Below are positions 5,765 through 34,141 of a DNA stretch of 34,527 nucleotides, piece after piece. The DNA comes from an uncultured Pirellulales bacterium (GTDB lineage Bacteria > Planctomycetota > Phycisphaerae > Sedimentisphaerales > Anaerobacaceae), in contig CAZZHL010000001.1 of assembly GCA_964653945.1 (NCBI GenBank), forward strand, positions 1 through 34,527. Reading direction: 5' to 3'. Within the stretch, counting starts at the first letter, position 1; the number at the start of each line of letters is the position of its first letter. Under the pieces are notes generated by a model. The model saw nothing but the letters and a program-made list of their open reading frames with translations. It made no database searches and had not been told where the DNA came from. The position numbers were made by a program, and so were the translations under genes.

Positions 5765-7300
5765 ATGGCAATCTCAACATTATATGAACCGAAATCTACA
5801 GGGCTACAGAGAGCCGCACACATCTATCGCCAACTAAGACGCACACTGCCGATAACAAGGCGGGATTTGAAAAATTACGTCAAGGTCTTTTTGGGCATCG
5901 ACGTCCCGGACGAAAGAATCTGCCCGGAGCATAACGCGCCTATGGACTATCTCTGGCATAGCTTCACATCGGACAAGGGAATTTTCGATTTGCAATCTTC
6001 GATTGTCGATTTTAAGAGTCATGAGCAACGAGCGACGGGTAATGCCGATTGTGTCGTTTGGGCCAACCGAGCAGGCGGCAAGACCGAATTAGCAGCCGTC
6101 GCAACGCTGTTGGACTGCATCTTCAAGAACAACTGTTTCGTCAGAATCCTCGGCGGCTCAGGCGAGCAGTCCGGCAGGATGTATGAATATATGACCAGCT
6201 TTCTAAATAATGGCTTCGATGAGTTTCTCGACGGCCCTGCGCTTAAAACAAAATGCCGATTTATCAACGGCTCATCCATCGAGGTCCTGACACAGTCGGC
6301 AACCAGCGTTCGCGGCCAGCACATCCAGAAGCTCCGCTGCGATGAGGTCGAGCTTTTCGATGAGAATGTCTTTTCTGCTGCGAAGTTCACAACACAAAGC
6401 ACGGACAATATCACCGCTGCGATGGAGACAATCAGCACGATGCACCGCCCTTGTGGCCTGATGCAGAAGATTGTCTCATCTGCAGAAAAGTTTAATACAC
6501 CCATCTTTAAATGGTGCATCTGGGAGGTGATTGAAAGATGCACCGACAGAAACTGCTCGCAGTGTCCGTTATGGAGCGATTGTCAGGGCAAGGCAAAACG
6601 GGCAGATGGCTATTTGAAGATTGACGATTGCATTACACAGATGCGTCGTGCGAGCAGAGCCGCTTTCGAGGCGGAGATGCTATGCAAAAGACCTTCGCTG
6701 GAAAATGTCGTCTTCAATGAGTTCGACCCCGCCCTGCACGTCAAATCCATCGACTATGACCCGAACCTGCCTTTGTACCGCTCGCTCGATTTCGGCTTTG
6801 TCAACCCGTTCGTATGTCTGTGGATTCAGGTCGATAGCGCAGGCGTCGTACGCATTATAGATGAGTATGTCCGCACAAGGGCAACGGTTGATGTCCACGC
6901 CGATGAGTTGAAAAAAAGAACGCCCTGCAGCGAAGAAAAGGTCGCTGCTACTTTTTGCGACCCCGCCGGAGCCGGTGTGAATGACGTTACCGGTACGAGC
7001 ATTGTTCGTGAGCTGCGGGCTATGGGGATAGCGACGCGTTTCAGGCGAAGCGGTATCTTGGAGGGCATCGAGCTTATCCGAAGGGCCATCCGCTGCGGCG
7101 ACGGCAGAAGCTCGCTTGTTATCTCACCCAGATGTCCACGCCTGATAGAGGCCTTGCAGTGCTATCATTACCCCGATTTCGGGGCCGAAAACAGCGAATT
7201 ACCCCTAAAAGACGGCATTTACGACCATCCCATCGACGCTTTGCGCTATTTCTTTATAAACCACGCACAACCTGCCAAAACCACTTCAAGAAGATACTAA
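5765..7300 (+). CDS. Phage terminase large subunit (TerL)
   Basis: 511 aa with AAGGAGGG at 5749-5756. Walker A-like ANRAGGKTELAA and Walker B LRCDEVELF. Nuclease-domain acidic motifs are SLDFGFVNPF, FCDPAGAG and YDHPIDALRYF. All motifs are intact. Confidence 0.9.
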   Translation: MAISTLYEPKSTGLQRAAHIYRQLRRTLPITRRDLKNYVKVFLGIDVPDERICPEHNAPMDYLWHSFTSDKGIFDLQSSIVDFKSHEQRATGNADCVVWANRAGGKTELAAVATLLDCIFKNNCFVRILGGSGEQSGRMYEYMTSFLNNGFDEFLDGPALKTKCRFINGSSIEVLTQSATSVRGQHIQKLRCDEVELFDENVFSAAKFTTQSTDNITAAMETISTMHRPCGLMQKIVSSAEKFNTPIFKWCIWEVIERCTDRNCSQCPLWSDCQGKAKRADGYLKIDDCITQMRRASRAAFEAEMLCKRPSLENVVFNEFDPALHVKSIDYDPNLPLYRSLDFGFVNPFVCLWIQVDSAGVVRIIDEYVRTRATVDVHADELKKRTPCSEEKVAATFCDPAGAGVNDVTGTSIVRELRAMGIATRFRRSGILEGIELIRRAIRCGDGRSSLVISPRCPRLIEALQCYHYPDFGAENSELPLKDGIYDHPIDALRYFFINHAQPAKTTSRRY

Positions 7301-18142: not shown

Positions 18143-18482
18143 CTTTGAGCTTTGAGTTATAAGTTCTTAAACTGCAAGGGATTGTAAAAAAATCTGCTAT
18201 AAGTACCTTCCATATATAGACTTACAAAATATTTTCAATCAAATACGCAGGTAGTTGCGCGCAAAAACCGGAAAAAACGAAAATTTTTTTATTCCTTTTC
18301 CTGCAAGCACTTAAAAAAATCCCATTTGTAAAAAATCATCCAAATTTCAATCAAATGTGCAGGTTCATCCTAATTATAGAGGGGCGACGACAGCCCCGTA
18401 TTGCGTGAAGCGTATCGCGTAGAGTTGATGAGTGAGATTGCTTCGCTTGGCTCGCAATGACATGTAAAAGTGGAGATTGAGT

Positions 18483-20057
18483 ATGGGATTTGAACTTGAT
18501 ATTTTTAACTCGGCTGAGGCGGGCGGTTCGACGTTGCTCACCACGGGTGAACCCAATGCGGATTTTCTCGACTGGCTTGTTGATGAGCACTCGGCCGATA
18601 TACAGAAGCACTTTACGAAGCTGTGGGAATACTATGCAAATCCGACGTATGAGCTAAACGACATAAGCGGCTACGACAAAAGGGCGAGTGAGTCGGGCCG
18701 CTGTTATGTGCAGGCGCAGGAGTACGGGCTGCCTGCGAGGATAACGGGCCTGGTGCATTGCAGCGATGCCGGAGTCTTCGGCGGCCGGGCGGTCAAAGAT
18801 GTGCAGCGAAAAGAGGCGGTTGTTGAAAATGATATTGCCTGGCGAATAAATGCAGCGGTTGATTTTTTGTTCGGTAAACCAATTAGTTTTGTATCGAGGT
18901 CGCCGGATAGCCAAAAACGCACAGAGATTGAGGCCATATTAAAGGCGGTTTTTGCGGCTAACGGCGGAATCGGATTTTTCCAGGATATGGCGGTGCTCGG
19001 AGGTGTTTACGGTTTTGTCGACTGCCTAATCAGGCCTGGCACAGATATCTTAGAACGCACTTCGTCTTCCTTCTCTTCCTCCTCACCCTCTAAAAAAACT
19101 TCGTTCGAAGATGTGCTGCAATTGGCACGGACAATCGGCCTTGAGCTGATTGAAGCACCGAGAGCACTGCCTGTTCTGGATGAGAACGACTACAAAAAAA
19201 TAAGGTTCTACGTGCAGCACTTCTACCAGAAGAGAAATGCGATGACCAGGAAGAACTCTTTTCTTTCCAACCTGTTTACGCGGGGCAAGCAAAGCGGCGA
19301 TACCCGGCAGGTGGTAGCGGTAACGGAGATTACTTCGGACTCGGCCTGGCAGAGATATGAAGACAAACAGCTCGTTGCGGAGGGTGAATGGCCGTGGGGA
19401 TTTCTGCCGGTGGTGCATATCCAGAATATTGCTCAGCCATATTATTACGAGGGGCTGAGTGATGTGGAGCCGCTGATGCCGCTGCAGGATGAGCTTAATA
19501 CGAGACTCAGCGACAGGGCAAACAGGATTACATTCCAGTCATTCAAGATGTATCTGGGAAAAGGCATAGAGGGCTTTGAGGACAGGCCCATCTCGCCGGG
19601 GCGGATGTGGTACACGGATAACATGGAAGCGACCATCGAAGAATTCGGGGGAGATGCAGCAGCGCCGAGCGAGGCCCTGCATATCGCAGAAGTAAGAGAG
19701 GCGATGGATAAGGCAAGCGGAGTGACGCCTGTTATGGCCGGGATTCTCAAAGGCAAGCTTGGCAACCTGACGAGCGCGGTTGCTCTTCGACTAACGCTTA
19801 TGGGAATGCTTTCAAAGACCGAACGGAAAAAATTTGCATACAGCGAAGGGCTGAAAAAAATCTGCCGGCTTGTCCTGTCAATACTCGATAAGGCCGACAT
19901 TTACAGGACCTCTGAGTGCCAAAGAGAGGTAGATGTTATTTTCCCCAACCCGCTGCCGGAAAATATGATGGAAAAACTAAAAGAGGCCCAGCTCAAAAAA
20001 GAACTGGGCGTACCAGCTGAGCAGGTGCTCAGAGAATTAGGATATGAGAGTTTATAG
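18483..20057 (+). CDS. Phage portal protein (SPP1 Gp6-like type)
   Basis: ATG at 18483 with GGAG at 18472-18475; the ORF track starts at TTG 18477. About 524 aa. The block GLSDVEPLMPLQDELNTRLSDRANRITFQSFKMY is portal-like. A scaffold-like gene and a capsid gene follow. Confidence 0.8.
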   Translation: MGFELDIFNSAEAGGSTLLTTGEPNADFLDWLVDEHSADIQKHFTKLWEYYANPTYELNDISGYDKRASESGRCYVQAQEYGLPARITGLVHCSDAGVFGGRAVKDVQRKEAVVENDIAWRINAAVDFLFGKPISFVSRSPDSQKRTEIEAILKAVFAANGGIGFFQDMAVLGGVYGFVDCLIRPGTDILERTSSSFSSSSPSKKTSFEDVLQLARTIGLELIEAPRALPVLDENDYKKIRFYVQHFYQKRNAMTRKNSFLSNLFTRGKQSGDTRQVVAVTEITSDSAWQRYEDKQLVAEGEWPWGFLPVVHIQNIAQPYYYEGLSDVEPLMPLQDELNTRLSDRANRITFQSFKMYLGKGIEGFEDRPISPGRMWYTDNMEATIEEFGGDAAAPSEALHIAEVREAMDKASGVTPVMAGILKGKLGNLTSAVALRLTLMGMLSKTERKKFAYSEGLKKICRLVLSILDKADIYRTSECQREVDVIFPNPLPENMMEKLKEAQLKKELGVPAEQVLRELGYESL

Positions 20058-20660: not shown

Positions 20661-20759
20661 AAGAATAGCCACGAAGGCACGAGGTCACAAAGAAAGTAAA
20701 AGTTAGAAAAATTAGTGTCTTTGTGTCTTGGTGGCAAAAAACAAAAGGAGAATCATAAG

Positions 20760-21914
20760 ATGGCTTTTACGGGAAAAGCAACTTATTCAGCGGGAACGAC
20801 TCTGCCGGAGCTTGCAGAGGATGTATCAGATTTAATCGGGATAATTTCGCCTTATGAGACACCATTGCTGGATGCTTTGGGCGACCCGATGAGAGAGGCA
20901 ACGAGCACACATCATGAATGGCTTGAGGATGAGCTTTTGCCTAATAAGGATGCTATCAACGACAATACATGGAGCGACCCGGATTCCGATACAGAGTTTG
21001 ATGTTGACCACGGCAGCAGATTTCGCATAGGCGACCAGATTCAGGTCGAGGGCAGTGAAGAGCTGATGCTCGTAACCGGTATCAGTGGCGATACACTGAC
21101 AGTAGTTCGCGGATATGCGGGCACGACGCCGGAGGACCTTGCTGACAATCTGGTAATCAACATTCTCGGGAATGCGGCTCTTGAGGGGGCGGACAAGCCC
21201 AGCGCCAGATTTACCAATCGTAGCAGATGTGGTAACTACACGCAGATATTTACCGCTGCGGTGGAGGTCAGCGGAACGGATATGGCTGCGAGCCATTTAG
21301 GTTTGTCTGACGAGATGGATTATCAGAAGCAGGAGCGGCTACGTGAGTTGCTTCGCGACCTTGAGAATACGGTTATCAATGGCGGCCAGCCGGCGAGTAA
21401 TCCCGAAGGCAGCGGTTCAGTGCGAAGGTCGATGAAAGGAATATTGAAACACCTTTCAACGAACGTATTCCATACCGGTGACAGCGGTTTTCCAACGGGC
21501 ACCGACCTTAATGAGGCCAAGATTAATTATGTGCTCAGGAAGGTTTGGGAGGCAAGTTCCGGCAACGTGGACCTGATTGTAGTCGGTGGTTTTCAGAAGC
21601 GAAAGATAAACGCCTTTTGCGCTGAGAGCCGGAGCTACGGAGCCGGTGATACTACTTTCACCGATATGATTAGTATTTACGAGAGTGATTTCGGCGTTTG
21701 CAGGATTGTTACTACGCGATGGATGCCACCGCATGCGGCGCTGCTGCTGGATTCGTCCCGCGTCAAAGTGCTGCCATTAGCAGGGCGGAGCTTTCATTTC
21801 AAGCCGTTGGCGAGCAGTGGTGACTATGAGTGCGGCGAGCTGATTGGCGAATATACACTCGAGCTTAAAAATGAAGCGGCACACGGGCTTATTCGCGACC
21901 TGACTACCACTTAA
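20760..21914 (+). CDS. Phage major capsid protein (HK97-fold; resembles the DUF5309/SU10-type coat family)
   Basis: ATG at 20760 with AAGGAG at 20745-20750; the ORF track starts at GTG 20715. The N-terminus TLPELAEDVSDLIGIISPYETPLLDALG...HEWLEDEL matches my recollection of that coat family. Position after portal and scaffold supports the call. Confidence 0.75.
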   Translation: MAFTGKATYSAGTTLPELAEDVSDLIGIISPYETPLLDALGDPMREATSTHHEWLEDELLPNKDAINDNTWSDPDSDTEFDVDHGSRFRIGDQIQVEGSEELMLVTGISGDTLTVVRGYAGTTPEDLADNLVINILGNAALEGADKPSARFTNRSRCGNYTQIFTAAVEVSGTDMAASHLGLSDEMDYQKQERLRELLRDLENTVINGGQPASNPEGSGSVRRSMKGILKHLSTNVFHTGDSGFPTGTDLNEAKINYVLRKVWEASSGNVDLIVVGGFQKRKINAFCAESRSYGAGDTTFTDMISIYESDFGVCRIVTTRWMPPHAALLLDSSRVKVLPLAGRSFHFKPLASSGDYECGELIGEYTLELKNEAAHGLIRDLTTT

Positions 21915-25130: not shown

Positions 25131-25640
25131 CCTCGGCGAGGCTATAAAAAGTCCCCCCCAAAGGGACAGGTATATAAGAGCTATGGATTGATTAAGTGTC
25201 CATAAGAAAACAGCGGTTTTTCTGCAGAGGTGACGATGTTATGGCACTATGAGCGAAAATTTTCTTTTTGAGTGGTTCTTTTATCCAACTACTGCGTTAC
25301 ACAGCCCCGCCCGATGCTCGACGTACTACAGTACGCCTCCGCTCGGTCGAAACTGCAAGCCTTGTATTTGGAGTAAAATCCCTCACTCAAAAGGGGGCAT
25401 ACTGTTTTCGGCGAGATGCGAGATGCGAACGACGCTTGTCCGCCATAGCATCGGCGAAGGCGGAAGTGACGAATATGCCACAGATTGCACAGATTACGCA
25501 GAGAATTGGTTAATCCCAACAAAAAGATTCGGGACAAGTTAGTGATTTGGTGAGGTGGGAACTTATTCAAGAGGCTTGCCAGCAGATTCAAATCCTTTTG
25601 AGCCGTTCGACCGGGGGACCGACACAAATCGAGTCGGACT

Positions 25641-26730
25641 GTTATAGTTGACAGTTCAAGCAATCCCAAATACAATAATCTCTACGTCACGATGACAATA
25701 GATAGAGTTGTAGTTGACAGTTCAAGCAATCCCAAATACAATCATAGTATATTCTGGCTTGTGGTTCAATCTGTTGTAGTTGACAGTTCAAGCAATCCCA
25801 AATACAATAAACCGATAGTGTTTCACCTTCAAGATGGTGTTATAGTTGACAGTTCAAGCAATCCCAAATACAATATCTGATATGTCGATAATCGTAGAGA
25901 CGTTGTTATAGTTGACAGTTCAAGCAATCCCAAATACAATCTTTCACCGCATCAGGACGATAACCGCAGTGTTATAGTTGACAGTTCAAGCAATCCCAAA
26001 TACAATAGAACAATTGACCAGCGTGCAGACGGCAATGTTATAGTTGACAGTTCAAGCAATCCCAAATACAATACCAAGCTGTGCGTTGTGTAACGCCGAT
26101 AGGTTATAGTTGACAGTTCAAGCAATCCCAAATACAATGCTGCCTTGCGACCCCTTGTAGAATCCGGAGGTTATAGTTGACAGTTCAAGCAATCCCAAAT
26201 ACAATTGCCTTCCGCCGATGCCTCAGAGTGCCTTTGTTATAGTTGACAGTTCAAGCAATCCCAAATACAATTACCTCCTCCAATGCCATTAAGCTCGTTT
26301 CGTTATAGTTGACAGTTCAAGCAATCCCAAATACAATTCTGATATATCTATAATCGTAGAGACGTTGTTATAGTTGACAGTTCAAGCAATCCCAAATACA
26401 ATTGGGGCCTTTGCATCCACGATAACCGATAAGTTATAGTTGACAGTTCAAGCAATCCCAAATACAATGCCTACACCTAAAGTTACGGCTAAAGAATGTT
26501 ATAGTTGACAGTTCAAGCAATCCCAAATACAATCATACCATGTTATAGGTATGTCGGTGCCGGGTTATAGTTGACAGTTCAAGCAATCCCAAATACAATA
26601 CTGCGCCGCTGGTGGGCTGGGCCTGGTGCGTTATAGTTGACAGTTCAAGCAATCCCAAATACAATATAGTATATATCGAATTGTGTAAGTGTGTGTTATA
26701 GTTGACAGTTCAAGCAATCCCAAATACAAT
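25641..26730 (+). CRISPR. CRISPR array, type II-C-like: 17 repeats of 36 nt, 16 spacers of 29-31 nt
   Basis: The repeat is GTTATAGTTGACAGTTCAAGCAATCCCAAATACAAT. Repeats start at 25641, 25707, 25773, 25839, 25905, 25971, 26037, 26103, 26170, 26236, 26302, 26367, 26433, 26498, 26564, 26630 and 26695. Repeats 2 and 3 carry A4G. The + orientation is supported by the GTT... 5' end, tracrRNA complementarity and the intra-repeat promoter. Confidence 0.98.
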
Positions 26731-26915
26731 ACCAATGCGCTAACATTGCCTATAATAATGACTTAGCGGCATTTGTCTGAGAAAAAACCACTATTAATGA
26801 CCCTTATGGGGAGCATTCTATTTTATTTTTTCAGCGGCACTTCCAATTAAAAACTAATGTAAGAGGGGTTTTTTGCCGTAAAAAATTGAAAATACCATCT
26901 TTTGAGGAATAATTG

Positions 26916-27839
26916 ATGGATACATATAATTGCGGTAGAATCATCGAAATTTCCGGCTTAAATCATTTTCTTAAAAAAGAAAGAGGGGCTCTGGCGGTTT
27001 ATCGTAAGGGCCAAAAAGTAGGCTCAGTCGCCTTTGATGATATACAAGCAATCTTACTAAATGCCTACGATTTGTGCTACTCTCACAATCTTCTAAGTGA
27101 GTTTGCGGAAAGAAAAATTCCTGTCGTCTTCTGCAATAAAAAGCATATCCCCACAAGCATGATTTTGCCGTTCGACAGCTATTTCCACCAAAGCAGAAGA
27201 ACCTTACATCAGGCACAAGCTAAAAAACCGGTAAACAAACAGCTCTGGAAAATAATAATTGCCGCAAAACTGACTCAACAGGCTTATATACTCGAATTGC
27301 TGGGGAAAAAACACAAATATCTTTTGGAACTTATAAAAGAAATAAAATCTGATGATTCAACGAATTGTGAAGGTCAGGCAGCAAGACATTATTTTACTCA
27401 ATTGTTTGGAAAAGATTTCGTAAGGGACAGGGAGCAACCGGGCCCTAATTCATTGTTAAATTATGGATATATCGTTTTTCGAAGCGCGATGGCAAGAGCA
27501 ATTGTCTCTTACGGTCTGAATCCAAGCATAGGTATAAAGCATTGTAACCCTAATAATTCTATGCCTTTAGTTGACGATCTGTTGGAACCATTCAGGCCAT
27601 TTATAGATATGGAAGTATATACAATGTACATTGGGGAAGGGCAATTTGAAGTGGATCCTGAAAATAAAACCCGGCTCATTAGCCTTTTAAATCAATCAAT
27701 AAGAACCGATAAAATTACAACCACCCCTAACCATGTGATGCACAAAACTGCTGCTTCTCTGGGCCATATTTATGATGGCACGATTAAAAAACTCTACCTC
27801 CCATTTATGTGTTTCGCAAATATTTATCGAAATAATTAA
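26916..27839 (+). CDS. cas1: CRISPR-associated endonuclease Cas1 (type II)
   Basis: ATG at 26916 with GAGGAA at 26903-26908; the ORF track starts at TTG 26913. NSLLNYGYIVFRSAMARAIVSYGLNPSIGIKHCN...PLVDDLLEPFRPFID is the Cas1 core. It lies on the strand opposite cas2 and cas9. Confidence 0.93.
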   Translation: MDTYNCGRIIEISGLNHFLKKERGALAVYRKGQKVGSVAFDDIQAILLNAYDLCYSHNLLSEFAERKIPVVFCNKKHIPTSMILPFDSYFHQSRRTLHQAQAKKPVNKQLWKIIIAAKLTQQAYILELLGKKHKYLLELIKEIKSDDSTNCEGQAARHYFTQLFGKDFVRDREQPGPNSLLNYGYIVFRSAMARAIVSYGLNPSIGIKHCNPNNSMPLVDDLLEPFRPFIDMEVYTMYIGEGQFEVDPENKTRLISLLNQSIRTDKITTTPNHVMHKTAASLGHIYDGTIKKLYLPFMCFANIYRNN

Positions 27840-28198
27840 AACAGGGTAAGCTGTTCCTGCTGTCGCCTTATAATCTCCTCATTAGTAGCAGGTAAATTAC
27901 CAATATAATTTTCCACAGTGGCAAATTGACGATCTGTAATATAAAGGAAGGAGACCAGACCGCCGTCAGGGACTCTCGCAGATAGTTTTCTGACGAGTAT
28001 CCTTGCTGTCCTGAGTGAACCTGTGGGTTTTATATATACGGAAAACTGTTTCATTACAAAACCGTTGTCCAAAAGCAGATTGCGAAACTTCGTTGCCCTT
28101 CGCATCTGCATTTTTGTCTTGACCGGCAAATCGAACATACAGAAAACCCACATAAAGCACCAGTCACTTAGACTATTTAATCGCTTCTTTCTTGCCAT
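27836..28198 (-). CDS. cas2: CRISPR-associated endoribonuclease Cas2
   Basis: 120 aa. MWVFCMFDLPVKTKMQMRRATKFRNLLLDNGFVMKQFSVYIK is a type II Cas2 pattern. The start overlaps the cas9 3' end by 26 nt. Its stop overlaps the cas1 stop (27836-27839). Confidence 0.88.
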   Translation of the reverse strand: MARKKRLNSLSDWCFMWVFCMFDLPVKTKMQMRRATKFRNLLLDNGFVMKQFSVYIKPTGSLRTARILVRKLSARVPDGGLVSFLYITDRQFATVENYIGNLPATNEEIIRRQQEQLTLF

Positions 28199-31100
28199 TC
28201 CAGAGTTTTTTGTGTTTTCTTTTTATTTTACCGAATGATGTCAGTTCTATTTTGCGTGCTTTGTGTTCTGTATAAAATCCTAACCTACGAATAATAGAAT
28301 CACGTAATGTAAAAGGCCCATTTTTACCTGTTGTACCTCGTGCATCTGAATGATAGGCAATACCTAATTTGGTATGACAGGCATTGACGACGGCAAAACA
28401 TCTTTTTCCATCGGTATATTTTTCCCATTCATCGGGGGTATTAAGCTCTATCATATCACCTTTATGCAAAGACCAAATAGGCTTAAAACCTTTTTGTTGC
28501 CATTGTGGTATAAAGTCTTTATTGTTCGCATCAAATAGACTTATACATTCCCAGCCCACTTTAAATTTGTCATTTTCGTACAAATCAATGCGATAATTCC
28601 CGTCTTTTCCAGTTTCGTATGCTATATTATGCTTATCTATAAAAATCACATTTTCTAAATTATTGTAGACAGGATAAGTGACAAACTCATACTTACCGTA
28701 CTTCATAACCATCCCAAAAGCCTTTTGCAATATCATTGCCTCGCTAATTTGTCTTTCTTTTTTACTATCTTTGGTAAGCTGCTGATTTTCTTCCTTAAGC
28801 GCTTCCTCTGCTTGTTCATAATATGATTCTATTGCTGTCTTTAATTTGATCATATTTTCAGCATCTTTGGCAATATCAGTGTGCCAGTCCGGTTTAATAG
28901 TATTGGTATTTATCAGTAGATTATTGAGACTGGATTTATCCTTCAAGACCGTTGTTTTCGTAATTGGCCTGTTATACCTGGTAATTACTTTGTTGGGATA
29001 ATCCGGATTTTGCATTAAAGCATATTCGCCTGTTTCTTTATGCAATCGGCCGTTCCTGCTATGCTCAGGCTTATGATAGACTCTAACTTTATTTAGAGAA
29101 TCAATTACCTTCTTCCTAAAGACAACTAGATTCTTCTTGCGGTCGTTATCGTTTCCATTGCTTAACGGTACAGTTAGCTGCAAAAACGGTGTTCCAAAGA
29201 CCCTTTTATCAAACCAGTTGATTTTCTGCATATCTGCTCTGCTTACAAAGCCAATAGTTATCGCGTCAACAATGTGATGCCGGTGATCTATTCTCGGTTT
29301 ATTTTTCCAATCTTTATTTTTAATTTTTTCCCGTCTTTCCCAGTTGCCGTCAATGTTGAGTTCTTCCTGATACAAAACTTCTCCGGTGTCGATGTTTACA
29401 TAATGCGTCTTATCCGGCAGATATTCAGGAACTTCTTTATTCAGGCCCATCAAATCATATTCAATCCCGTCAAGATTCCAGATTCTTCTTAGTTTTGCGG
29501 TATGTCCGCCGTTGATAGTTAATATCCTCGTATTGTTGGGGTCTCCTTGTTTGTAATCGACAATAGCTTTTAAATATCTGGCGGCTAATTTGCAGATGTA
29601 TCTTGTGTCAGTTAAATATCGCGTAATATTGTCGGCATCACCGCTTTCAAATTTTTCCTTTGCATCGCTTTCGAACCGCCATTTTTTCCCATCCAACATA
29701 TTTTTATTGCTTCTGATTTCCTTCAGGATCCCATAGATTTTATCACCATGCTTATTTTGCAGATACTCATAAGGATACATATTGCCTTTACTAAGATTAT
29801 CGCTTCTTTTAATAAGAACTCGATTTATTCGGGCATCTGTGCCGCCGACGCTGTCCGGTATTAAATGCTCGATTTCGAAACCTTCGAATCTAGGATGTAT
29901 TCTTTCTAATGTACTGGAAAAGATATCTTTCCAATTTTGTTCCTCCGCCAAACGCCATTTAAATATATTTGATTCGGTAGCTCTTAATCTAACATCAGGG
30001 CTTCTGAGGTATTTGACAGCTTCTTCTGTCTTCTTTCTGTTTTTTTCCTGTTGTTTTTCATATTCGTTTATTTTTTCGGCACTCATTCCGACTTCTCTGG
30101 CAAGTTCGATGTTAATATCGTAAGGTTTTCCGTATATTCGAATAATATCATTAATTACCTTGCGAAGCTGGTTAAGTATCCTGTGAACAGCAGGATTGGC
30201 AATTTTTCCGTATTCTGCTTCAAGCGGATTTAAAGATTTATTTATCTTTTTCTGCCATTTTGCTATAGGCTGAGTATCTGTTTTTAAAATTTCACCATAG
30301 TATGGGAGCATATCATATTTGCCCTGTATTTCTCTTGCTCGTTCTTCTTCTGCGATAAATCTTTTATCGGTTTGGGCAAGTATATCTGTTGCTTCTCTTA
30401 TTGAAATGACATCTTTTTCAAGTAACTTTAAAATTTCTTTTGTGGCTGTTATACCTAACGAGCCCCTGCCTTTGGGCAGCATTGCCAATAATTGAGATAT
30501 CTGCTGCTCGTCTTCACTATTAAATTTTTTCTTTAATATTTCAATGGCCTTATCATCGTTATAAAGATAACCTTCTTTATCAGGGTTCTTGGGTTCAGCC
30601 ATAAACTCAACAACTTTAGCGAGTTTTTTATCCTCAAGATTATTTAGAAAATCAATTGATTTGTATTCCGCTGTCGAGTATAGGTAAGGCTGTATCATAT
30701 CAGCTAAAACAACTTTAATAGACCTCTCAAGATTCAATAATTTACTGATTGACTTTTTGCCGGCCTTTTTGCCTTCAAGCAGCAGTTCATTGATAATCAA
30801 ATCACGTTGAGCCTTTTTCAGCTTTTTTTGTTCTGTTTGCGTTTGAAGCCGTATGTTATTGACTGACTCATATATTCTGCGTTTTTCGCTCAATGGATGA
30901 GCTTTGGATAGCCGTTTCTCACCAGTAATAAAAATACAGTCACCTGTTGCATAAGGTCTATGGTCATATTCATAAAAAAGAATGTTATAAATTTTCTTTT
31001 TTAGACTTGTGTTTAGCTGCTTGTAATATTGGGCTTGTGTATCCCATAAAAGGTTAAATTCATCTTTTACTAAATATCTTGGGATTGCATAATCAACCAT

Positions 31101-31724
31101 TACCTTGCCGCCAATGGTTCTGGTCCTCTGCCGCACATACCGCCTGTTTTCCGCAGTGATTTTATTTTTTTTATAGAGCCTATTCAGCCTCATATAAAAA
31201 TATTCACCTATTGTTTTGGCGTTGTTTTCATCTATGTATTTTTTTAACTTGGCATATTCTGATAGCTCTTTTTTCTTTTTTTTACTATCATTCTCTTCGT
31301 TTATTTCATTATCTTTTTCTAACTCTATTTCTGTTTTTTGCATTTCCACGAAACTTGCCCCACGATGTTTAGCCATATGCAGTATGGCTCGTCCAAGTTC
31401 CATAATATTATTTAATTTTCCATTTACTCCCTGTGCTCGTATTCTGTATGGTGAAAGACTGATAAGCTCTGTCTGAATATCATCATCAAGACTCCATAGA
31501 CCAGCTTCTGCAAGGGCTTTAGAAAGCAGAGAAATTCTTTGTTTGGTCCTTTCAGTATTTTTTCTTTGATTTCGTTTCAGTCTTCTTTCTTCAGCCCCTT
31601 TTGATACATCAAAGATACATACCCCTGCATCTAATATATCTGTTATTCTATTTTGCTCATCTAAAGATAAAACGGCTGCACCGATTGAACCTGTCCCTAA
31701 ATCCAAGGATAATCGATATTTCAT
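28173..31724 (-). CDS. cas9: Cas9 (type II-C-like, 1183 aa)
   Basis: RuvC-I YRLSLDLGTGSIGAAV. Arg-rich bridge helix RRLKRNQRKNTERTKQR. RuvC-II PYDINIELAREV. HNH FEIEHLIPDSVGGTDARINRVLIKRSDNLSKGN. RuvC-III DHRHHIVDAITIGF. No csn2 or cas4 is nearby. Confidence 0.95.
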   Translation of the reverse strand: MKYRLSLDLGTGSIGAAVLSLDEQNRITDILDAGVCIFDVSKGAEERRLKRNQRKNTERTKQRISLLSKALAEAGLWSLDDDIQTELISLSPYRIRAQGVNGKLNNIMELGRAILHMAKHRGASFVEMQKTEIELEKDNEINEENDSKKKKKELSEYAKLKKYIDENNAKTIGEYFYMRLNRLYKKNKITAENRRYVRQRTRTIGGKVMVDYAIPRYLVKDEFNLLWDTQAQYYKQLNTSLKKKIYNILFYEYDHRPYATGDCIFITGEKRLSKAHPLSEKRRIYESVNNIRLQTQTEQKKLKKAQRDLIINELLLEGKKAGKKSISKLLNLERSIKVVLADMIQPYLYSTAEYKSIDFLNNLEDKKLAKVVEFMAEPKNPDKEGYLYNDDKAIEILKKKFNSEDEQQISQLLAMLPKGRGSLGITATKEILKLLEKDVISIREATDILAQTDKRFIAEEERAREIQGKYDMLPYYGEILKTDTQPIAKWQKKINKSLNPLEAEYGKIANPAVHRILNQLRKVINDIIRIYGKPYDINIELAREVGMSAEKINEYEKQQEKNRKKTEEAVKYLRSPDVRLRATESNIFKWRLAEEQNWKDIFSSTLERIHPRFEGFEIEHLIPDSVGGTDARINRVLIKRSDNLSKGNMYPYEYLQNKHGDKIYGILKEIRSNKNMLDGKKWRFESDAKEKFESGDADNITRYLTDTRYICKLAARYLKAIVDYKQGDPNNTRILTINGGHTAKLRRIWNLDGIEYDLMGLNKEVPEYLPDKTHYVNIDTGEVLYQEELNIDGNWERREKIKNKDWKNKPRIDHRHHIVDAITIGFVSRADMQKINWFDKRVFGTPFLQLTVPLSNGNDNDRKKNLVVFRKKVIDSLNKVRVYHKPEHSRNGRLHKETGEYALMQNPDYPNKVITRYNRPITKTTVLKDKSSLNNLLINTNTIKPDWHTDIAKDAENMIKLKTAIESYYEQAEEALKEENQQLTKDSKKERQISEAMILQKAFGMVMKYGKYEFVTYPVYNNLENVIFIDKHNIAYETGKDGNYRIDLYENDKFKVGWECISLFDANNKDFIPQWQQKGFKPIWSLHKGDMIELNTPDEWEKYTDGKRCFAVVNACHTKLGIAYHSDARGTTGKNGPFTLRDSIIRRLGFYTEHKARKIELTSFGKIKRKHKKLWNGKKEAIK

Positions 31725-31756: not shown

Positions 31757-31785
31757 TTGACAAATCTCAAAACCGAGGTTATATC
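31757..31785 (+). promoter_or_regulatory. Candidate tracrRNA promoter, divergent from cas9
   Basis: TTGACA (31757-31762), 17 nt, TATATC (31780-31785). Confidence 0.5.
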
Positions 31786-31791
31786 ACTTAT

Positions 31792-31884
31792 AGATATATG
31801 TGTATTTGGGATTGCTTGAACTGCACATATAATAAAGGCTATATGCCCTAAGATGTGAGAGGGACTTGATTGCCCTCTCTTTTT
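31792..31884 (+). ncRNA. tracrRNA
   Basis: 31801-31823 (TGTATTTGGGATTGCTTGAACTG) is the exact reverse complement of repeat positions 12-34. 31824-31833 pairs imperfectly with repeat positions 1-10. An AAGGCTATATGCC nexus-like hairpin follows. The terminator is GAGAGGG (31857-31863) / CCCTCTC (31873-31879) + TTTTT. The 5' end is approximate. Confidence 0.8.
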
Positions 31885-32229
31885 ATGCGCAAATCTAAGT
31901 ATAAAAATCATCATAAATCCATTTCCGCTGATTCCAAACCTCTTACAGAAAAGTCGTCATTCTTTAGCCGTTTATCATTAGCGCCAAAGACAAATCATAA
32001 TTAATAAGCTTATTTCCTCTCAGTTGTTTTTCCCCTTATCGTTGTGATTTGTAATTATATCTCCTCCTTCAAAAAAATCAAGATTTTTCTGAAAATTCCC
32101 TTGCCGGATTAAGCCCAGTGAGGTATTTTAATAACCGGCGGAGAGATAACCGCCATTTATAAGATAACACTGAGATTTCAGACGTTTCACCTCAAACCGT
32201 CAGTTTGTAATTTTGGGAACGTGTGGAAG

Positions 32230-33418: not shown

Positions 33419-33688
33419 ATGGTTAAGAAGGAATATATCACAGTACCGCAGTTGGCTGAATTGCTGGGCATAAGCCGTATCGCCGCATACAAAAAGGTCA
33501 AAAGCGGCCAAATACCAGCTAAGAAAATCGGCAGAAATTACGCCATTTCCAAAAACGATATAGCACGCAGTCTGACCGGCAAAATGACCGGCAAGAGTAA
33601 AAAGCAGATTGACTCAGCAGTCAAAAAAACAGTTCAGGAATACGGCAGGGTATTGAAATGGCTTGGTAAGGAATCTCGTGCTACGTAG
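33419..33688 (+). CDS. Excisionase/MerR-type HTH DNA-binding protein, probable antitoxin for Doc
   Basis: 89 aa. ITVPQLAELLGISRIAAYKKVKSGQIPAKKIGRNYAISKNDI is an HTH_17-type motif. It lies 18 nt upstream of the Doc gene. Confidence 0.7.
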   Translation: MVKKEYITVPQLAELLGISRIAAYKKVKSGQIPAKKIGRNYAISKNDIARSLTGKMTGKSKKQIDSAVKKTVQEYGRVLKWLGKESRAT

Positions 33689-33706: not shown

Positions 33707-34141
33707 GTGAACATCATCACCATAGAAGAAGTTGAATATATCGCTTTCAGTCTTGCGCAGGAGCACATGTTTTTTAATGAGCCGATCCCCGATTTCACGA
33801 CACGATATCCGCACATACTTGAAAGCTGCTTGGCTGTACCTTTTCAACGTTTTTCCAGAAAGGCCCTATATCCGTCGATGATATCCAAGGCAAGCATCCT
33901 TTTGTACCTGATGATTAAGAACCATCCTTTTCAAAATGGCAATAAAAGGATAGCTATAACAATGTTATTTGTATTCCTGCACAAGAACAACAAGTGGCTG
34001 GTTTTGGACCCCAAGGAGCTTTACAATTTCACTGTGTGGATTGCGCAGAGTCCGTCCAAACTTAAGGATTCTGTAGTTGCCGGTATAGAGCAGTTTATTC
34101 GGACGTATTTAGTGGACTTAAACAAAAAGCGTCGCAGGTAG
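33707..34141 (+). CDS. doc: Fic/Doc family toxin (death-on-curing type)
   Basis: 144 aa with a GTG start. HPFQNGNKRIA is the Doc variant of the Fic motif HxFx(D/N)GNKR. Confidence 0.85.
   Translation: MNIITIEEVEYIAFSLAQEHMFFNEPIPDFTTRYPHILESCLAVPFQRFSRKALYPSMISKASILLYLMIKNHPFQNGNKRIAITMLFVFLHKNNKWLVLDPKELYNFTVWIAQSPSKLKDSVVAGIEQFIRTYLVDLNKKRRR

Follow-up and report, generated by a model that had tools for sequence, protein, structure and literature searches.

Type II-C CRISPR repeats with a -35/-10 promoter motif in an uncultured planctomycete probably let each guide RNA be transcribed on its own

Introduction

The CRISPR-Cas9 locus of the DNA analysed here, a stretch of 34,527 nucleotides from an uncultured planctomycete that is referred to below as the window, raises the question of whether the repeats of its array serve themselves as promoters of the guide RNAs, and of what part a perfect -35 hexamer within each repeat plays in that arrangement. 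Arrays of the Neisseria and Campylobacter kind are characterized by crRNAs with 5'-triphosphate ends inside the spacers and by interference that proceeds without RNase III.

In Neisseria meningitidis, crRNAs are reported to be produced from repeat-embedded promoters (PMC12477760, PMC5965381, PMC7038990), the first transcribed position being the 6th nt of every spacer (PMC12477760). Campylobacter jejuni is reported to have a -10 box within the 3' portion of every repeat, individual crRNA promoters and primary starts at spacer position 5 (PMC3656092), its repeats ending in GGTAAAAT, which was likened to an extended -10 without a -35 (Dugar et al. 2013, PMC3656092). A survey of 58 type II-C systems predicted a sigma-70 -10 of the form gnTAnaaT at the repeat 3' end (Pearson et al. 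2015, PMC4607530); this work also describes arrays convergent to the cas operon with degenerate repeats at the first-transcribed end, and its Table S1 lists II-C repeats including one from a planctomycete. The statement of a first-pass annotation of this DNA, that intra-repeat promoters with a -10 in the repeat are established for Neisseria and Campylobacter II-C arrays, matches PMC3656092, PMC12477760 and PMC4607530. A literature search, with subscription papers and supplements outside its scope, found no paper describing a -35 in II-C repeats.

Materials and Methods

The host genome comprises 2.46 Mb and is 76%-complete; long open reading frames were called crudely, and the gene calls cover 1.82 of the 2.46 Mb. 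Promoter spacing was evaluated in 781 upstream regions, with the array excluded, by counting TTGACn-Nx-TAnnnT for x = 8-27 and comparing the counts with those in coding DNA.

For the survey of repeats, 20 planctomycete loci and 80 loci of other phyla with a Cas9 profile were taken as input. Arrays were found in 63/80 of the loci of other phyla, and the 17/80 without an array were left out, as were loci with a consensus length outside 36-38 nt (L038, L068, L080, L088, L095, L103 and L105; L088 carries TTGACC-16-TATAAT). The final sample consisted of 71 loci with 67 distinct repeats.

Results and Discussion

The locus and its promoter-like repeats

The array, the first and last of its promoter-like units, and the cas genes lie as follows.

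25641-26730, + strand (crRNA sense): type II-C CRISPR array with 17 repeats, each 36 nt long, and 16 intervening spacers of 29-31 nt
25648-25676, + strand: promoter-like unit of repeat 1 (-35 at 25648-25653, 17-nt spacer, -10 at 25671-25676), recurring in 17/17 repeats
26702-26730, + strand: promoter-like unit of the last (leader-adjacent) repeat, pointing towards the leader and cas1
26916-27839, + strand: cas1 (TIGR03639, 249 bits), inverted relative to cas9-cas2
27836-28198, - strand: cas2 (TIGR01573)
28173-31724, - strand: cas9, 1183 aa (TIGR01865, 443 bits)

In the ORF list, the interval from the array to the tracrRNA contains no additional gene with the size of Csn2 or Cas4, so that the system, with cas9, cas1 and cas2 only and no room for csn2 or cas4, is assigned to type II-C.

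Scanning for the consensus promoter placed TTGACA at repeat nt 8-13 and TACAAT at nt 31-36, separated by exactly 17 nt, in 17/17 repeats, whose common layout is GTTATAG-TTGACA-N17-TACAAT, with an A4G variant in repeats 2 and 3. Both the hexamers at this spacing, which amount to an 11/12 consensus match, and the A4G changes are thereby confirmed as the first-pass annotation had described them. The -10 hexamer forms the last 6 nt of every repeat on the crRNA strand, the same place as in II-C systems with mapped primary starts. The TG one base before the hexamer that makes an extended -10 is absent from 17/17 repeats, a -35 being present instead.

The region scan called 27 promoter-like sites, compared with 8.4 +/- 3.3 in shuffles; because a single sequence, present in 17 copies, accounts for the repeat sites, these were counted as one event and not as 17. 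A match of at least 11/12 positions is found at 182 non-array sites of the host genome (2 x 2.46 Mb), 131 of them outside the crude gene calls, and from their number the chance of finding one in a random 36-mer of the genome is estimated at about 2-6 in 10,000.

Several features of the spacers and of the surrounding DNA were recorded in parallel. Spacers 4 (25875-25904) and 11 (26338-26366) are near-identical versions of one protospacer, with 2 differences and one end base. Spacer 15 (26600-26629) has an exact 30-nt match in a 488-nt contig of run X1 and in a shorter contig of X2, both salt-marsh metagenomes, likely a protospacer from a mobile element of the same habitat; the flanks of this match are unlike the repeat, and a single case is too few for reading a PAM. 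Against the genome outside the array the spacers gave only chance matches of 13-18 nt, with no self-targeting. In contigs assembled from four salt-marsh metagenome DNA runs the array is collapsed, and one of the joints leaves out 1054 nt. Two short stretches before the array, 25435-25464 and 25512-25543, attract numerous unrelated contigs of high depth in each of the four runs, which identifies them as copies of a widespread short repeat element.

Promoter grammar of the host

Upstream of host genes, TTGACn-Nx-TAnnnT gave 57 occurrences with x = 17 and 29 with x = 16, compared with 1-14 at each other spacing, while in coding DNA the same motif gave a flat profile of 0.6-2.7 per 100 kb. The variant TTGAnn with TAnAAT behaved similarly (33 at x = 17, 25 at x = 16, 0-6 at other spacings). 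This sharp peak at 16-17 nt shows that the host uses a canonical -35/-10 grammar, into which the repeat fits. It also agrees with the earlier remark that gene promoters of the window share the architecture of the repeat, sites of at least 11/12 being found at 1550 (TTGACA-17-TATAAT), 14227 and 15865. Genes of the sigma-70 family are present in the genome, and RNase III is encoded (223 bits, above cut-off); for RpoD, the 76%-complete genome gave no match above the curated cut-off, the best one reaching 203 bits and another being cut by a contig end.

This grammar also bears on a different account, in which one long pre-crRNA would be transcribed from a promoter outside the array, the repeat motifs would be silent in vivo and both crRNA ends would come from processing. 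Such is the usual mode in type II-A, and with promoters only 66 bp apart neighbours would presumably interfere with each other. Nonetheless, the motifs follow the promoter grammar of the host, and in the 1.1 kb before the array the best promoter-like site called on the + strand reaches only 9/12. In addition, the II-C arrays studied so far start inside spacers, according to PMC5965381, PMC12477760 and PMC3656092. Considering these points, transcription of the array as a single precursor appears improbable.

The tracrRNA and the strand of the crRNAs

A tracrRNA could be delineated on the + strand, together with its likely promoter.

31757-31785, + strand: likely tracrRNA promoter (TTGACA, 17 nt, TATATC)
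31795-31885, + strand: tracrRNA with anti-repeat, nexus-like hairpin AAGGCTATATGCC and terminator, upstream of cas9 and divergent from it

The anti-repeat consists of a perfect 23-nt stretch at 31801-31823 with an imperfect extension to about 31833, and the terminator of a stem (31857-31863 with 31873-31879) followed by a T-run at 31880-31884. The tracrRNA is conserved across 5 aligned loci, where the terminator stem covaries, changes occurring on both of its sides, and the TTGACA about 40 nt before the anti-repeat is invariant in 5/5. Similarly, the C at repeat position 26 in the window, which is T in its relatives, is compensated in the anti-repeat by G versus A. Rfam searching retrieved no family match anywhere in the window. 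From the + strand tracrRNA, its covarying terminator and the covariation between repeat and anti-repeat it follows that the crRNA strand is the + strand, and the strand proposed by the first-pass annotation stands.

Repeat-finding tools often assume that an array shares the strand of the cas genes (PMC3737331), and if crRNAs were indeed produced from the minus strand the + strand motif would be irrelevant. However, the tracrRNA, the TTGACA on its promoter side and the covarying terminator all lie on the + strand, and the tracrRNA can pair solely with + strand repeat transcripts. Moreover, the scan called no repeat-borne promoter-like sites on the minus strand, so that a minus-strand origin of the crRNAs is very hard to credit.

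The anti-repeat itself, at 31806-31833 (+), spells TTGGGA-16-TATAAT, a 10/12 match from which transcription, if it were used, would start just after the anti-repeat; this is probably incidental.

Proposed course of guide RNA transcription

The motif in the repeats, the grammar of the host and the strand together make it a well-founded reading that the promoters are embedded in the repeats. We therefore consider it likely, as judged from the sequence, that each repeat acts as a housekeeping (sigma-70-type) promoter of the array, individual transcription of every guide RNA being the probable outcome. RNA polymerase would bind TTGACA and TACAAT within a repeat, initiate about 5-8 nt into the next spacer and read through the following repeat. 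The tracrRNA would pair with that downstream repeat in a 23-bp perfect duplex and RNase III would cut on the 3' side, the expected product being a crRNA with a primary 5' end and a guide of roughly 23-26 nt. Starts at about 6-8 nt into the spacer had been anticipated by the first-pass annotation, and this predicted position fits, the -10 being placed as in the mapped systems of C. jejuni and N. meningitidis.

Promoters recurring every 66 bp would have their neighbours within one polymerase footprint. Not all of them would thus be occupied at once, and neighbours would be expected to compete for polymerase, so that the earlier wording that all 17 repeats fire is better read as each of them being able to fire. 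As to relative strength, the combination of a -35 with a -10 is predicted to be a stronger version of the Neisseria and Campylobacter arrangement, the -35 being expected to contribute to initiation.

The -35 hexamer in relatives and in other II-C repeats

Repeats of the clade arrays (the window and the loci L002, L015 and L125) differ at 1/36 positions, TTGACA being kept in the window and in 3/3 related arrays, and conservation of the hexamers does not exceed that of the other repeat positions. The survey of the 67 distinct repeats gave the following values and the following near-complete promoters.

TAnnnT at nt 31-36: 58/67 distinct repeats
-35 match of at least 4/6 at 16-18 nt: 43/67 repeats (1000 shuffles: mean 6.4, maximum 15)
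-35 match of at least 5/6 at 16-18 nt: 9/67 repeats (1000 shuffles: mean 0.7, maximum 4)
Treponema MAGs L054 and L063, near-complete repeat promoters: TTGACC-16-TATAAT
Planctomycete L027, near-complete repeat promoter: TTGACA-16-TACACT

Agreement with TTGACA is highest where the hexamer begins at position 8 or 9. Nevertheless, the excess over shuffles largely reflects shared descent and is not independent evidence, because a single hexamer that makes a poor -35, TGGACC, occupies the -35 place in 22 of the 58 TAnnnT repeats, where TTGACC is found in 5 and TTGACA in 3. A total match of at least 10/12 is reached by 6/67 distinct repeats, namely those of the window, L002/L015, the two Treponema MAGs, one alphaproteobacterial MAG and L027, so that within this sample of related II-C repeats such a unit is not unique to the window. 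L054, L063 and L027 resemble the window in carrying a -35 and a -10 inside a 36-nt II-C repeat, at positions 8/9 and 31, and differ from it in their spacer of 16 instead of 17 nt and in their Cas9 clades, with 22-28% identity to the window Cas9; L027 shows in addition the usual cas9-cas1-cas2 gene order, versus the inverted cas1 of the window. As read from these repeats, the window appears at the top of a trend in the Cas9 lineage, in which a T(T/G)GAC(C/A) block is common at repeat nt 8/9-13/14 and one or two changes make it a true -35.

The same closeness allows the -35 hexamer to be regarded as a by-product, TTGACA being one or two changes from the block of related II-C repeats and nt 8-13 being retained because the guide-RNA duplex and recognition by Cas9, or integration by Cas1-Cas2, require them. 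Transcription would in that case depend on the -10, as it does in other II-C arrays, and the -35 would bring little benefit visible to selection; the proposal concerns origin and selection more than polymerase binding. The predicted duplex between repeat and anti-repeat (-44 kcal/mol) pairs repeat nt 1-6, 9-10 and 12-34, and TTGACA overlaps its internal loop, with T8 unpaired and A11 bulged, as a by-product would have it. Cas9 orthologues often read the internal-loop region of the crRNA:tracrRNA duplex, and a constraint at the RNA level, with Cas9 reading the loop, could hence act on the -35 region. The occurrence of related hexamers at the same place in many II-C repeats, the near-invariance of the whole repeat within the clade and the missing compensation between -35 and TG point in the same direction, TG being present in 3/8 repeats with a -35 of at least 5/6 and in 19/50 with less, that is, with no signal.

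On the contrary, the tracrRNA segment opposite TTGACA varies between lineages (5 aligned columns are missing from the anti-repeat of the window, with further differences in L015, L001 and L032) whereas the hexamer does not, which indicates that pairing alone does not explain it. The repeat is also without the TG extension that -10-only promoters rely on, and a canonical sigma factor would bind TTGACA-17-TACAAT, at the spacing preferred by the host, whatever its origin. A -35 kept merely as a by-product is accordingly regarded as unlikely, if considerably less so than transcription from outside the array or from the minus strand, and promoter function of each repeat is retained as the preferred reading.

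Inverted cas1, leader and array polarity

The orientation of cas1 sets this clade apart. The gene is inverted in 4/4 close loci of the Cas9 clade, where it lies tail-to-tail with cas2.

Window, 26913-28198: inverted cas1, tail-to-tail with cas2
L002, 10593-11860: the same arrangement
L015, 6191-7458: the same arrangement
L001, 7965-9232: the same arrangement

In the window, the ORF lister places the start of cas1 at TTG 26913, while ATG 26916 aligns with the start in relatives. Type II-C loci usually have cas9-cas1-cas2 on one strand and a convergent array, an order found in none of these four loci. Among the more distant planctomycete loci, 14/16 carry cas9-cas1-cas2 on one strand, cas1 being inverted in 0/14, and the remaining 2/16, L022 and L028, gave a cas9 match only. 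Gene order is a habit of type II-C and not part of its definition. One of the 14, L020 (12403-18263, genome G054), has its array between cas9 and cas1-cas2 and not after cas2.

Regarding its wider surroundings, the locus shares its 34.5-kb contig with phage genes for head formation and packaging (5765-7300, 18477-20057 and 20715-21914), namely a large terminase, a portal and a major head protein (phrog_1328, E = 2.5e-80), at a distance of a few kb from the array. Its other side holds an excisionase-like gene at 33419-33688 and, at 33707-34141, a Fic gene; the CRISPR-Cas9 locus may sit beside or inside a prophage.

The array and cas1 are separated by the leader.

26731-26915, + strand: leader, from the last repeat to cas1, with ACCAATGCG (26731-26739) as its initial 9 nt

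These 9 nt fit the motif A(C/T)CA(A/C)TGCG, kept in 4/4 related loci. No terminator-like site was called on the + strand of the window leader, and its folding is no better than that of shuffles (z = -0.14). The variant A4G repeats 2 and 3 are at the array end far from the leader, that is, the first-transcribed end, the leader being at the downstream end. Acquisition at the cas1-proximal, downstream end fits both the leader motif and the variant repeats at the far end, and agrees with PMC12080349. The polarity put forward in the first-pass annotation, with the cas-proximal end as the acquisition end, is consistent with all of this and with L002, in which a single diverged 36-nt repeat of an L027-like family (TTGACA-16-TACACT) precedes the first repeat by one spacer (~30 nt) at the cas1-distal end, and has the appearance of a remnant left by an array that was older or has been replaced.

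A fossil repeat had also been suspected at 25576-25595 in the window, but was discarded. The best local alignment in the 140 nt upstream scored 8, no better than shuffled or random sequence, a score reached by 683/2000 shuffles and by 726/2000 random genomic stretches.

With cas1 inverted, the promoter of the last repeat points into this gene, at a distance of 91-185 nt on the crRNA strand in the 4 loci. In L002 and L015 the scan called no further promoter-like site in the interval from the last repeat to cas1, and in the window the sole others before cas1 overlap or abut its start codon. It is thus conceivable, though we put it forward only tentatively, that the leader-adjacent repeat promoter was taken over as the cas1 promoter in this Cas9 clade; a terminator-like hairpin in the L015 leader speaks against it, as does the fact that weaker promoters would escape the promoter scan. 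Spacer insertion duplicates the leader-adjacent repeat. An array-driven cas1 would, if true, consequently have its promoter renewed at each acquisition.

Comparison with known repeat-embedded promoters

Shared between N. meningitidis and the window are (i) a 36-nt repeat with the -10 as its last 6 nt and an array read opposite to cas9, (ii) a tracrRNA with RNase III acting on the 3' side and starts a few nt into the spacers, which are predicted ones in the window, and (iii) new spacers expected at the downstream, leader end. They differ in that Neisseria has an extended -10, with no -35 described, whereas the window has no TG and, at 17 nt, a perfect -35. The inversion of cas1 is another feature in which the window departs from N. 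meningitidis.

In the minimal type II-C system of C. jejuni, the -10 likewise lies in the 3' part of the repeat and transcription starts a few nt into the spacer, as is predicted for the window. On the contrary, its repeat end lacks a -35, and its host phylum and Cas9 clade are other ones. The window also follows the rule given in PMC4607530, its repeat ending in a -10 and its variant repeats lying near the first-transcribed end; what is accessible of that survey mentions the -10 alone and does not describe the cas1 inversion, while the window has a -35 and an inverted cas1. Repeat-embedded promoters are thus a known type II-C arrangement, and the difference here is one of promoter class, a perfect -35 replacing the extended -10.

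Significance

The principle of the repeat promoter has been known since 2013, so that the advance in understanding is a modest one. If the repeats fire, Planctomycetota join the bacteria whose II-C arrays give every guide a promoter and do without 5' processing, and this strategy can make use of a -35/-10 promoter instead of an extended -10. The motif offers in turn a cheap way to call the strand of an array and the guide length when mining for Cas9 orthologues, and expression constructs for E. coli would likewise show activity from a 36-nt repeat so close to the promoter consensus.

Whether the array drives the inverted cas1 is a more interesting question than the repeat promoter itself. If it does, polymerases reading through from every upstream repeat would further raise the transcription of cas1, and the supply of the integrase would be tied to the array itself, apart from cas9-cas2.
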